Shown here piece by piece: positions 1,195-4,725 of a stretch of 5,082 bases of DNA. This DNA comes from a virus. Lineage: Duplodnaviria; Heunggongvirae; Uroviricota; Caudoviricetes. The notes beneath the pieces were generated by a model. That model saw only the letters and a program-made list of their open reading frames with translations. It was not told the origin of the DNA and did not search any database. A program made the translations under genes and the position numbers. The stretch's first letter is position 1; each line of letters begins with the position of its first letter. The stretch is from the IMG/VR virus record IMGVR_UViG_2579778652_000011, one strand, 5' to 3'.

Positions 1195-1356
1195 ATGTCT
1201 GAAAAAAACAAGCCACAAGATGAAAATAAACCTCAGCAACCCGTGGCACCAAAACCAACTCCAACACAAAGTACTACAGACTTTGCTACACGTCGTGTTT
1301 TTGTTGGAGATTCTGCCGACTCAGTCATTGAACATATAAAAAAACAGCCGAGATAA
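1195..1356 (+). CDS. Candidate small protein, 53 aa, hydrophilic and Pro/Lys/Gln-rich, convergent with and overlapping the 3' end of the membrane-protein gene
   Basis: ATG at 1195 preceded by AAGAGGA Shine-Dalgarno with 5-nt spacing. Translation MSEKNKPQDENKPQQPVAPKPTPTQSTTDFATRRVFVGDSADSVIEHIKKQPR. Overlaps the minus-strand gene by 32 nt. No homolog recognised, and low-complexity composition makes a chance ORF possible. Confidence 0.3.
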   Translation: MSEKNKPQDENKPQQPVAPKPTPTQSTTDFATRRVFVGDSADSVIEHIKKQPR

Positions 1357-1894: not shown

Positions 1895-1922
1895 CTCACC
1901 TCCACATCCTGTACTGAAAACA

Positions 1923-1931
1923 ATTTTACCA
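1923..1931 (-). promoter_or_regulatory. Candidate extended -10 element (TGgTAAAAT) for the moron gene's own promoter
   Basis: Minus-strand sequence TGGTAAAAT lies about 30 nt upstream of the ATG at 1894 and fits the TGn-TATAAT pattern. No good -35 is present. By sequence only. Confidence 0.25.
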
Positions 1932-2001
1932 GAATGTCTCGATTCTAGGTATTCCGCCAGGAATCGCGCTCCAGAAATGAAACATCAGGTTCGCCAGTAC
2001 C

Positions 2002-2032
2002 AGAAACAACAAAACCCGCTCAATGGCGGGTT
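2002..2032 (-). terminator. tR'-like intrinsic terminator about 85 nt downstream of the Q stop
   Basis: Perfect 7-bp stem (AACCCGC 2013-2019 pairs with GCGGGTT 2026-2032) with a 6-nt loop. On the minus strand it is followed by TTGTTGTTTCT. Position after Q is analogous to lambda tR'. Confidence 0.55.
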
Positions 2033-2115
2033 CTGGTAAAGTTCATGCGCTTGGTTCGCCTCGCGATACAGCTTTGCGAAGCATACCGGAATTGAAGCAG
2101 TTTATGCGTAAAAAA

Positions 2116-2658
2116 TCAAGCTATTTTTTGAGCAAATGATTCTCGCATGGGAATATATAGGGCATACTCAGCAACAGCCAACCAATTAGCAATTCGCTTT
2201 TCGCATGTGCTAAAACACCACTCAGGATGTGCATCATTTAGCAATTCAGCCATTTTGCGCTTAGTCATCCCCCGTCCTTCATACCGTTGCCGGAGGACAC
2301 TAATCAATCCAGGATGCTCTGCCAGCACCTCACTTATGACTCTATCAATACATAACGCCTCTGCATCAGTACAATGCGCCAGCCAGGTCTTTTGCTTGCC
2401 ATTGATCATCTCTCGCAAAAACGCTTCCAGCTCAGGTTTCTCTATTCCCGCTTTTTTCATCCTGCGCAGGGCTTCATTGACGGCTGTTTTCGTCAATTTT
2501 TTGGATGCCAGCAACTGGTTAAACATATTTCCCGTCTTACCGCCGCCAATATACGACCAGCGCCCCCACATGCGCAGTTTTCCCTGAATCCAGACACTTT
2601 CCAGCGTGGTGAGACGAAGGTGTTCCCCGCTTTTGCCTGTATTTGTTGGGTAAATCAT
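2116..2658 (-). CDS. Late-gene antiterminator Q, Q82/QuuD-like family, 180 aa
   Basis: Sits immediately upstream of the terminator and lysis genes, as in lambdoid phages. Motif pattern (LRMWGRWS, paired Cys/His-containing segments) resembles my recollection of E. coli QuuD and phage 82 Q. Start chosen at ATG 2658, which has a GGAGAAAGGAAGG Shine-Dalgarno and overlaps the upstream stop as ATGA. The longer annotated ORF to 2778 overlaps the upstream gene. Confidence 0.6.
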   Translation of the reverse strand: MIYPTNTGKSGEHLRLTTLESVWIQGKLRMWGRWSYIGGGKTGNMFNQLLASKKLTKTAVNEALRRMKKAGIEKPELEAFLREMINGKQKTWLAHCTDAEALCIDRVISEVLAEHPGLISVLRQRYEGRGMTKRKMAELLNDAHPEWCFSTCEKRIANWLAVAEYALYIPMRESFAQKIA

Positions 2659-3544: not shown

Positions 3545-3602
3545 TTCTCAATCTCTCGATGGCGCAGCGCAGCAGATGCCAGTTGTTCAGGCTGACGAAT
3601 AA

Positions 3603-3630
3603 AGTATAAATAAACTGGCTATGGTGTAAA
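3603..3630 (-). promoter_or_regulatory. Candidate sigma70 promoter for the DUF1367/YbcO/Q operon
   Basis: On the minus strand, TTTACA (plus 3625-3630), a 16-nt spacer, then TATACT (plus 3603-3608), about 60 nt upstream of the ATG at 3544. By sequence only. Confidence 0.3.
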
Positions 3631-3824
3631 GCCCCACATAGCATGAACAAACACTACATATCAAATAGCTGGTACAAGGATAGAAATACGACATTTATTA
3701 TTAAAAACGATTAGATAAATTACATTTTAATGTTATGCAAAAGTTCTTTTTTATCATAACATTTCAATAAAAGCATTACAGATGCAATCATCCCGTCATC
3801 ATCAATTATTTAAGGTGGTTAAAC

Positions 3825-3911
3825 ATGGAAAATAACAAGTTCGCACATCTCGCTCCTTTTTTATCCGTAATCCTTTTCGCTTGTTGTTTTATATGGGCAT
3901 TATTTTTATAA
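3825..3911 (+). CDS. Candidate small hydrophobic protein, 28 aa, single predicted TM helix
   Basis: ATG at 3825 preceded by TAAGGTGG Shine-Dalgarno with 6-nt spacing. Translation MENNKFAHLAPFLSVILFACCFIWALFL. Lies in AT-rich intergenic DNA. Confidence 0.35.
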   Translation: MENNKFAHLAPFLSVILFACCFIWALFL

Positions 3912-3984
3912 AGTAGCCACATGATAAGTTGCTGGAATCATATTTCCCACTCAAGTCATTAACATTTGATAAGATATATCTAAA

Positions 3985-4045
3985 AGGACACCTTTACATT
4001 ATTTATGTGTATATAATTTATTTATATACACAGTAAAGGTATCCT
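3985..4045. repeat. Composite imperfect palindrome: perfect 10-bp inverted repeat TGTGTATATA / TATATACACA with 7-bp spacer, flanked by 13-bp arms AGGACACCTTTAC / GTAAAGGTATCCT (12/13)
   Basis: Read directly. Inner arms at 4006-4015 and 4023-4032, outer arms at 3985-3997 and 4033-4045. The left side carries an 8-nt insertion (ATTATTTA) between outer and inner arms. Confidence 0.6.
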
Positions 4046-4302
4046 GGGAAAATATTTATCGTTAAAAAATACATCATAAATAATTAAGCTGAAATTTCAG
4101 AACACAACTAATACACACAATAAGGTTCAGTAACAATAATCTATGTGGACTACATCGAGATTTTTTGATTAAACTTTAATAACTTATTCCTAACACACAG
4201 AATGCATAAACTAAAAGTAAAACAAATAGTTATACGAAAAACAACCATATTTATTATATCTTCTCCTCTAATCAACATATCAATTATGTGTTTCATAACA
4301 GC

Positions 4303-4350
4303 TTGACATAACCCTCAAAAACACGCATTTATAATGCATGTTTTTGAGGG
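4303..4350 (+). promoter_or_regulatory. yeaR-like promoter region with an NsrR-like operator palindrome centred on the -10
   Basis: Perfect TTGACA (4303-4308) and TATAAT (4330-4335) separated by 21 bp. 17-bp arms CCCTCAAAAACACGCAT / ATGCATGTTTTTGAGGG (16/17) centred at 4331. The core AACACGCATTT-A-TAATGCATGTT (4320-4342) matches about 18 of 22 positions of the NsrR 11-1-11 consensus as I recall it (AAGATGCATTT n AAATACATCTT). Confidence 0.5.
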
Positions 4351-4357
4351 GGTGGTT

Positions 4358-4696
4358 ATGACACACAAGAGAATTCCTAAAGATTGGGTAATCAAACGCT
4401 CAACTCCGTTCTTCACAAAAGAGAACGTACCTTCAGCGTTATTAACACATCATAATACAGCAGCAGGTGTTTTTGGGCAGTTGTGCGTAATGGAAGGCAC
4501 TGTAACATATTATGGTTTTACTGATGAGAATGCTACTGAACCGGAGATAAAAGTAGTCATTAATGCTGGCGCTTTTGCAACAAGCCCACCACAATACTGG
4601 CACCGTGTTGAACTAAGCGATGATGCTCAGTTTAATATTAACTTTTGGGTCGCTCCAGACTTCTCGGGCGAAAAAGTCTATAGCACCAAAAAATAG
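4358..4696 (+). CDS. yeaR: YeaR-like DUF1971 protein, 112 aa
   Basis: Size and motifs (RSTPFF, FNINFWVAP) resemble my recollection of E. coli YeaR. The NsrR-like operator upstream fits known NsrR/NarL regulation of yeaR. Start taken at ATG 4358 after a GAGGGGGTGG Shine-Dalgarno, because the annotated ATG at 4334 lies inside the -10 hexamer. Confidence 0.6.
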   Translation: MTHKRIPKDWVIKRSTPFFTKENVPSALLTHHNTAAGVFGQLCVMEGTVTYYGFTDENATEPEIKVVINAGAFATSPPQYWHRVELSDDAQFNINFWVAPDFSGEKVYSTKK

Positions 4697-4725
4697 ATGA
4701 TCATATTAAAAATGCTTTAACAGTC

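Follow-up and report, generated by a model that had tools for sequence, protein, structure and literature searches.

Does a gene inserted between the antiterminator gene and the lysis genes of a prophage come under late control, and where is the promoter that would exert it? The question is raised by a stretch of viral DNA of 5,082 nucleotides (nt), IMG/VR record IMGVR_UViG_2579778652_000011 (Caudoviricetes), here called the window, in which a gene for a Q-like antiterminator is followed by an intrinsic terminator, a gene for a 189-amino-acid protein and the lysis genes. An earlier note on this DNA had proposed that the inserted gene, a moron, is transcribed with the lysis genes under late antitermination. 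Comparison of related loci at the sequence level supports each element of that model, and we consider it likely that the interval forms the late regulatory cassette of a lambdoid prophage of the Rac/Gifsy type from Escherichia coli, made up of Q, a promoter and terminator unit, mobile cargo and the lysis genes. This reading builds on the observed anatomy of the interval, on the positions and conservation of its elements and on the homology of Q to the Q protein of phage 21. The arrangement is the textbook one: the Q-dependent late cassette is an established model in the literature, and the locus is a well-supported further example of it, not a novel type of system.

Candidate late promoter and terminator behind Q

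All genes relevant to the late switch lie on the minus strand, which is the functional strand. The elements at the end of the Q gene are the following.

2658–2116, minus strand: gene for the Q-like antiterminator, 180 amino acids, stop codon TGA at 2118–2116 (Pfam DUF1133 and a weak Phage_antitermQ match)
2119–2114, minus strand: −35-like hexamer TTGATT, within which lies the Q stop codon
2113–2097, minus strand: spacer of 17 base pairs (bp), TTTTACGCATAAACTGC, a candidate Q-binding element with a homologous spacer motif in the family
2096–2091, minus strand: first −10-like hexamer TTCAAT (homologous register TCAATT, 2095–2090)
2085–2080, minus strand: second −10-like hexamer TATGCT (family hallmark TAnGCT), 5 nt past the first
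2079–2057, minus strand: conserved initial transcribed region TCGCAAAGCTGTATCGCGAGGCG, the predicted 5′ hairpin of a short RNA (homology in close loci reaching at least to 2057, and folding)
2032 to about 2000, minus strand: intrinsic terminator, equivalent to tR′, with stem 2032–2013 and T-run from 2012 to about 2000 (consensus scan, folding and family comparison)

Read along the minus strand, the end of Q has the sequence GC-TTGATT-TTTTACGCATAAACTGC-TTCAAT-TCCGG-TATGCT. The late promoter had been expected in 2040–2116 or overlapping the 3′ end of Q, and we found the conserved core there, at 2119–2057, with its −35 hexamer over the Q stop codon. The accompanying statement that no convincing −35/−10 pair is present does not hold, because TTGATT-17-TTCAAT (2119–2091) is conserved in position across relatives. 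An automatic promoter scan missed this pair because TTCAAT lacks an A at position 2. The only promoter that the scan did call, TTGGCT-18-TATATT (2152–2181, minus strand), was rejected as the late promoter: it falls within the last part of the Q reading frame, the protein sequence accounts for its being conserved in Rac, and the motif is missing where the core is detached from Q.

The terminator has a perfect stem (AACCCGC/GCGGGTT, 2032–2013) with the loop CATTGA, followed by TTGTTGTTTCTG to about 2000. It begins 86 nt past the Q stop codon, which bears out the earlier placement at 2002–2032, about 85 nt after that stop. A consensus scan puts it at 2035–2010 with 10 pairs, and the 51-nt fold has a free energy of −18 kcal/mol (z = −3.9; 0 of 200 shuffled sequences fold as well). 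The same distance recurs in a family set of 41 loci, formed from 38 loci of different Enterobacterales species, which a family alignment recovered, and representatives of the other sets: a perfect-stem intrinsic terminator ends 63–116 nt (median 94) after the Q stop in 37 of the 41. The compact interval is therefore a trait of the Q family and not of one phage.

Alignment of the family on TAnGCT revealed a common layout across genera: TTGnnn, 16–18 bp, a first −10-like hexamer, 4–5 nt and TAnGCT. A TTGnnn hexamer stands at the same spacing in each subgroup (TTGATT, TTGCAT, TTGCAA or TTGACT), and TTGCAT and TTGCAA, which occur in other flanking contexts, keep the 17-bp spacing. The first −10-like hexamer is invariably TTCAAT in near-identical loci, with TTTAAT as the single exception; other subgroups have TAAATT, TGAATT or TATCTT in the aligned position. 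TAnGCT is the most conserved non-coding element; T1, A2 and T6 are kept while position 3 varies, and in nearly all family loci it lies 4–5 nt past the first hexamer. Loci from Serratia come close to consensus (TTGACT-16-TAAATT-4-TAAGCT), and Rac and Rac-SA53, with about 84% DNA identity in the Q gene region, have TTGATT-17-TATCTT-5-TAAGAT followed by a terminator of their own. The spacer motif TTRCGCRnAAACTGCT is also kept across the family, even where it falls within the Q coding sequence. By analogy with lambda and phage 21, we regard the spacer as a candidate Q-binding element. The Q stop codon itself falls in the −35 hexamer (the window, Rac and some Serratia loci), in the first −10-like hexamer (the subgroup with a 192-amino-acid Q) or in TAnGCT (L152); it wanders over the elements, which indicates that these are conserved as DNA, independently of the reading frame. 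A comparable layout was not found downstream of quuD, the PF06530-type Q gene of DLP12.

Two registers can be read into this core. We favour a promoter TTGATT-17-TTCAAT with a predicted start at about A2084; TATGCT, at about −1 to +5, would then serve as a sigma-dependent pause element, similar to the situation in phage lambda. Two features count against it: the first hexamer is poor as a −10, with T in the window and A, G or C in relatives at position 2, where A is normally critical, and TAnGCT is the better −10 by sequence, having a TGn extension in many relatives. A somewhat unlikely alternative keeps the same cassette and makes TATGCT (2085–2080) the true −10, with a start at about 2073–2075 and a terminated RNA of about 66–70 nt; TTGATT and TTCAAT would not be a promoter but may belong to the Q-binding region, and the pause element would lie further downstream or be absent. 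Consistent with this alternative, practically every family locus keeps T1, A2 and T6 of TAnGCT, whereas position 2 of the first hexamer varies (TGAATT, TAAATT, TCAATT); moreover, TAnGCT follows a TGn with variable n, the signature of an extended −10, in the subgroup with a 192-amino-acid Q as well as in many loci closely related to the window. However, the window has CGG and not TGn ahead of TATGCT, no −35 stands 16–18 bp upstream of it, and no good −10-like element that could act as a pause site follows it. By contrast, the first hexamer is always preceded, at a distance of 16–18 bp, by a −35-like hexamer containing TTG, in each of four flanking contexts, and the Serratia loci have a strong TTGACT-16-TAAATT promoter. 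We favour the first hexamer because a −35 is correctly spaced from it in every subgroup and from TAnGCT in none, and because the window has no TGn before TATGCT. Under either register the terminated RNA would be about 65–80 nt long and is predicted to fold into a 5′ hairpin and the terminator hairpin.

The core behaves as a unit with Q. The 63-nt core (2119–2057, from the −35 to about +28) is present in all 82 close loci, whose Q is at least 94% identical and which include 80 IMG/VR loci (94–100%) and the phage record ON470614, and at least four different terminator sequences follow it at about equal distance. Homology to the window stops either after the T-run of the terminator (2000–2011) or within the short transcript (2055–2057), where another terminator takes over. 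These breaks suggest that Q, promoter and terminator form a unit and that cargo starts directly after it. Among 5,426 complete genomes of Escherichia coli, 1,487 contain the core, and in 763 of these the match covers 80% or more of the query, including the terminator. Cargo-free loci also exist: in L068 the holin gene begins 202 nt after the −35 hexamer. Such loci place the late promoter inside the unit of about 120 nt and imply that the terminator must be overcome for the lysis genes to be expressed.

We also considered that the hairpin might be the plain terminator of the early operon (irsA, ybcO, Q), with the conserved stretch as a 3′ untranslated region; other promoters would then drive the late genes and the cargo, and Q would have no role here. 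A terminator about 90 nt past the last gene of an operon would be unremarkable, and the antQ transcript of the Salmonella prophage Gifsy-1 is reported to begin about 1.6 kb upstream of antQ, so that an operon does end near here. This explanation is nevertheless very improbable. In two loci (L087 and L166) the same core and terminator are split from Q by an inserted antirepressor module and stand after an unrelated antirepressor gene, still directly before the cargo and lysis genes, which argues that the core is not the 3′ untranslated region of Q. The promoter-like hexamers of the core keep a fixed spacing across genera, and in the cargo-free loci the stretch from the terminator to the holin gene is too short to hold a further late promoter. 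We had regarded the TTGCAT of L087 as an independent −35 beside a different Q, but rejected this because the Q of L087 is a DUF1133 protein with an inserted isrK/C4/antirepressor module, and the core follows the module.

The DUF1133 protein and its known counterparts

The 180-amino-acid protein matches Pfam PF06576 (DUF1133) with E = 2.8e-109 and PF06530 (Phage_antitermQ) weakly but above the cut-off (28 bits, cut-off 26). It falls in PHROG 753, ‘anti-termination protein Q-like’, and the corresponding gene of the closest deposited phages, induced E. coli prophages that are 97% identical to the window (ON470614 and relatives), is annotated as antitermination protein Q. A phmmer search of the PDB with the single sequence gave the phage 21 protein Q21 as the top match, which was not significant (E = 0.15). 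A profile built from 14 DUF1133 family members, however, matched the Q21 structures 6P18 and 6JNX with E = 1.8e-9, collinearly across the N- and C-terminal halves. On this profile evidence, the Q of the window is a distant homologue of Q21. It has no match to PF03589 and is hence unrelated to Q-lambda. The DUF1133 family is narrow: clustering at 50% identity leaves only a few full-length clusters. Three Q families are distinguished in the structural literature, PF06530 (Q21), PF03589 (Q-lambda) and PF06323 (Q82); that literature does not mention DUF1133, and the term ‘DUF1133’ matched no searchable paper.

The window shares with Gifsy-1 the genes upstream of the switch (DUF1367/irsA, ybcO and a DUF1133 Q). 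Hershko-Shalev et al. described the Gifsy-1 order antQ, isrK, orf45, anrP, isrJ and lysis genes, with an antQ transcript starting about 1.6 kb upstream of antQ and a read-through transcript of about 910 nt from isrK to isrJ; overexpressed AntQ interferes with termination globally, and Rho rescues (PMC4825925). In sister loci (L129, L087, L132, L166 and L172–L207), the Rfam isrK model matches at 64–78 bits, beginning precisely 36 nt past the stop codon for a 184-amino-acid DUF1133 protein. This start is the seventh nucleotide past the TATATT of a TTGACT-18-TATATT promoter whose −35 overlaps the DUF1133 stop codon; a promoter overlapping that stop thus fits a characterised RNA whose 5′ end is known. 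The DUF1133 gene of these loci directly precedes isrK, where antQ, whose product has reported antitermination activity, stands in Gifsy-1. By this synteny, AntQ appears to be a DUF1133 protein, and the Q of the window appears to belong to the same family, although the assignment comes from synteny with isrK and not from the SL2579 sequence, which tells against it. Unlike Gifsy-1, the window lacks the isrK/C4/antirepressor module, and its core abuts Q.

Sister loci with a 184-amino-acid Q (for example, L166 4575–5394) carry isrK over c4-a1b1 target sites, a C4 antisense RNA and an ORF6N antirepressor gene, a module like P1 immI between Q and the core. The IsrK/AnrP region of Gifsy-1 accordingly looks like a C4/ant-type immunity module placed before the late promoter. 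Directly after the ORF6N antirepressor gene comes a core of the window type, TTGCAT-17-TTCAAT-5-TACGCT, with its terminator (L166 5407–5520; L087 about 2265–2400). In L166, the core and terminator lie at 4588 plus about 910 nt, the published length of the isrK-to-isrJ transcript, and isrJ is drawn there in Gifsy-1. A start at the A of TACGCT in L166 would give an RNA of 74–77 nt, near the size of IsrJ (75 nt in the Rfam model and reportedly 74 nt in the original description). Judged by its position, IsrJ may correspond to the late-promoter transcript of Gifsy-1 in its terminated form, which we offer as a lead and not as a result. The Rfam isrJ model reached 18.6 bits against L166 (cut-off 37), in the terminator half only, and matched none of 24 sister loci at its gathering score. 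In the window, neither isrK nor isrJ matched at E up to 1, and no Rfam model gave a meaningful match. Two known island RNAs of Salmonella, IsrK and probably IsrJ, are thereby connected with the architecture of the Q cassette.

The gene order of the window (Q, promoter, promoter-proximal −10-like element, intrinsic terminator, lysis genes) is that of the Q/pR′/tR′ region of lambda. The lambda promoter is constitutive and its transcript is terminated in the lysogen, and the same would be expected here. Lambda pR′ likewise has two tandem −10-like hexamers a few nucleotides apart; its short terminated RNA is 6S, and the promoter-to-terminator distance is about 194 nt, compared with about 80 nt in the window. 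Unlike in lambda, the window −35 overlaps the Q stop codon, and the two Q proteins are unrelated. Q21 (PF06530; 6P18 and 6JNX) is the only relative of the window Q with a solved structure, although the window Q belongs to a separate Pfam family, DUF1133. By homology, the Q21 mechanism would be expected for it: loading at a Q-binding element next to a sigma-dependent pause, after which the protein would build a nozzle on the RNA exit channel. In phages that carry Shiga toxin (Stx) genes (933W and Sakai Sp5), the order is Q, pR′, tR′, tRNAs and stx, lysis genes; cargo lies between the late terminator and the lysis genes, as in the window, and is hence co-induced with lysis; tRNA genes occupy the slot, as they do in sister loci of the window. 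The terminated pR′ transcript of Stx phages is a stable RNA in lysogens, the small RNA StxS. The Stx phages differ from the window in Q subfamily, in spacing (258 nt versus about 80 nt) and in cargo, which in the window is a membrane protein without known function and not a toxin.

A broader proposal would make DUF1133 proteins a deep branch of Q21-like antiterminators with a site of their own, formed by the conserved spacer and the tandem −10-like hexamers ending in TAnGCT. It would also give the terminated RNA of about 78 nt, present in roughly one in four complete E. coli genomes, a regulatory role as a small RNA that the prophage makes constitutively, a counterpart of StxS and possibly of Salmonella IsrJ. 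Late read-through would additionally run antisense to a small open reading frame (ORF) in the cargo, so that induction could flip the ratio of the two cargo products. We hold this proposal to be doubtful as a whole.

Cargo between the late terminator and the lysis genes

The moron had been placed downstream of the terminator, in a position like that of stx, and we found that this position is a variable cargo slot on the same strand, between the terminator and the lysis genes. Its cargo in the window goes beyond the single gene of the earlier note, being a two-gene convergent cassette with its own terminator.

1931–1923, minus strand: cargo-gene extended −10 element TGGTAAAAT, which precedes the ATG at 1894 by 29 nt
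1903–1895, minus strand: Shine–Dalgarno sequence GGAGGTGAG of the 189-amino-acid protein gene
1894–1325, minus strand: gene for a 189-amino-acid helical membrane protein (phrog_11870)
1195–1356, plus strand: small ORF convergent with the 189-amino-acid protein gene (phrog_14506), counted from an ATG; from 1141 when counted from a GTG
1099–1072, minus strand: second terminator-like hairpin, between the cassette and the holin gene, with stem-loop 1099–1082 (CCCCGG-CATGTC-CCGGGG) followed by CTTTTTCGTT

The gene for the 189-amino-acid protein occupies the slot in 18 loci, counting the window and ON470614. Other loci have tRNA-Thr and tRNA-Gly genes, an AraC-type regulator, TerB-like proteins, two TolA/TonB-C-like lipoproteins or small proteins of 66–69 amino acids in the slot. 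In Rac-SA53 it contains the pertussis-like toxin genes eplBA, and in L068 it is essentially empty. The cassette follows directly after the late terminator of phages with a PF03589 (Q-lambda-type), PF06323 (Q82-type) or DUF1133 Q, and occurs in one unrelated context.

Two loci (L178 and L184, about 4400–4725) carry the small RNA genes STnc100 and AgvB (anti-GcvB) between the late terminator and the lysis genes, which indicates that the slot gathers regulatory RNAs besides protein cargo. In L118 (2040–2380), a 61%-identical DUF1133 Q and its terminator are followed by a gene for a 79-amino-acid protein of no family, with an identical TGGTAAAAT, then by a second terminator and the 189-amino-acid protein cassette; here two morons are stacked in one slot. 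In one E. coli genome (NZ_CP047594; L126 4672–6041), IS150 lies between the cargo cassette and the holin gene, an insertion that would disconnect the late promoter and the lysis genes.

Homologues of the 189-amino-acid protein are 40–99% identical across Enterobacterales, nearly all of the same length and all annotated as hypothetical. An AlphaFold2 model is all-helical, with a predicted local distance difference test (pLDDT) score of 82, and the protein has hydrophobic segments at about 46–62, 70–90 and 170–188. Compared with the PDB and with viral structures, the model had no significant fold match, only generic long-helix matches at E > 0.1. For the two cargo proteins, Pfam and NCBIfam returned nothing, and the PADLOC defence-system models gave no match at E up to 0.1. 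The small ORF encodes 53 amino acids from an ATG with a good ribosome-binding site, or 71 from the GTG at 1141, which is the RefSeq form; it matches phrog_14506 with E = 2.4e-31 and overlaps the 3′ end of the 189-amino-acid protein gene by 32 nt. It accompanies that gene in 14 of 14 loci tested, including all the divergent ones, with 46–97% amino-acid identity. This constant co-occurrence defines the cargo as a two-gene cassette.

The possible extended −10 proposed at 1923–1931 proved to be part of a conserved element. TGGTAAAAT is the only match to TGNTAWAAT on either strand of the window; chance alone should give about 0.9 such matches over the full length of the window, which makes the match weak evidence by itself; the weight lies in its position and conservation. 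In eight divergent upstream regions, a hexamer TAARAT stands about 30 nt upstream of the 189-amino-acid protein gene; its T, A and final AT are invariant, a G at −14 is kept in seven of the eight, and the surroundings diverge. The element stays conserved in gene copies that are 61–74% identical and in unrelated contexts, and one copy (L121) has a perfect TGaTAAAAT without standing behind Q or a terminator. In five of eight cassette classes, a terminator of a different sequence each time lies 225–290 nt past the stop codon of the 189-amino-acid protein gene.

These observations bear on the possibility that the cargo is a late gene only, with GGTAARAT inactive as a promoter in the lysogen, no separate lysogenic expression and no role in lysogenic conversion. 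Chance alone would place one extended −10 match somewhere in a window of this length, most divergent copies lack the T at −15 (having AGG or GGG before the hexamer) and show no −35, and the near-constant position just before the lysis genes could mean that the cargo acts during lysis. We nonetheless judge it unlikely, because the T, A and AT of the −10 and, in seven of eight regions, the G at −14 persist amid diverged sequence, because the perfect copy in L121 is independent of Q and terminator, and because most versions of the cassette have a terminator of their own.

Lambdoid morons, according to Hendrix and colleagues, reportedly consist of a promoter, a gene and a terminator inserted between conserved genes. 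The cassette DNA is present in some relatives and missing from others, between conserved genes, and has a GC content of 36–43% compared with 47–52% in its flanks; its patchy distribution, low GC, own −10, own terminator and occurrence in several phage backbones are those of lambdoid morons. It fits the classical definition with an antisense partner gene added, its promoter being a candidate seen in the sequence. Unlike typical morons, it has two genes, the small ORF being convergent and overlapping, and it almost always stands just after the late terminator.

Following the accepted Q model, we infer promoter activity, the pause, Q loading, read-through and cargo expression in the lysogen. In the lysogen, the late promoter would fire constitutively from about A2084, TATGCT could hold sigma and pause RNA polymerase, and transcription would stop at the 2032–2000 terminator to give a short RNA of about 78 nt. 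The cargo promoter (1931–1923) would produce a transcript of about 835 nt ending at 1099–1082, with cargo expressed at a low level and the lysis genes silent. After induction, Q would bind the promoter-spacer region and load onto the paused polymerase, and the modified polymerase would pass both the late terminator and the weaker one at 1099–1082, so that the cargo cassette, holin, endolysin and Rz would be transcribed. The late read-through would be antisense to the small ORF and, more speculatively, may lower its expression.

Some observations weigh against the late-cassette reading. Around the conserved spacer motif we saw no convincing direct repeat and no clear 8-bp repeat of the kind that makes up the Q21 binding site, which consists of two tandem direct 8-bp repeats. 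With a 12-sequence alignment, the AlphaFold2 model of Q reached a pLDDT of only 53, too low for a Q21 fold to be confirmed. Folded alone, the second terminator of the window is weak (z = −1.2). A composite promoter pattern had a low chance expectation, which we discounted because the pattern was built from the window sequence and is no independent test.

If the late-cassette reading is right, the likely late promoter, pause element and terminator have been located to the base for a Q family that lies outside the three counted families and that databases label ‘DUF1133’. The unit would control whatever cargo follows it, be it toxins (eplBA in Rac-SA53), tRNAs, regulators or the cassette of the window. 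Loading of a DUF1133 Q in the manner of Q21, a small RNA role of the short RNA as for StxS, and co-induction of the cargo with lysis are now testable.

Neighbouring genes and other features of the window

The genes flanking the switch are as follows.

3544–2945, minus strand: DUF1367 (irsA-like) gene
2945–2655, minus strand: YbcO gene
977–636, minus strand: holin S of the lambda family, the first lysis gene (PF05106, E = 1.9e-27)
632–156, minus strand: endolysin R (matching records are annotated as endolysin or glycoside hydrolase family 24)

The start of Rz lies beyond the endolysin gene on the minus strand, and the lysis and late genes are thus on the same strand as Q. In complete E. coli genomes, trkG follows the same gene block, which identifies a Rac-type prophage.

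At 4312–4350, CCCTCAAAAACA...TGTTTTTGAGGG make up an extended, almost perfect inverted repeat (−26 kcal/mol, z = −5.8) that directly precedes the start region of a DUF1971 gene (4358–4696, plus strand) and runs into it, with TTGACA adjoining at 4303–4308. This repeat may be an operator or attenuator, and it accounts for a spurious microRNA match in Rfam. A very hydrophobic ORF of 28 amino acids, MENNKFAHLAPFLSVILFACCFIWALFL, preceded by an AAGGTGG ribosome-binding site, occupies 3825–3911 (plus strand) and resembles a small membrane toxin. It sits in an otherwise ORF-poor stretch with 26–31% GC (about 3600–4330), and related loci have hok/sok in its place, upstream of the DUF1367 gene.

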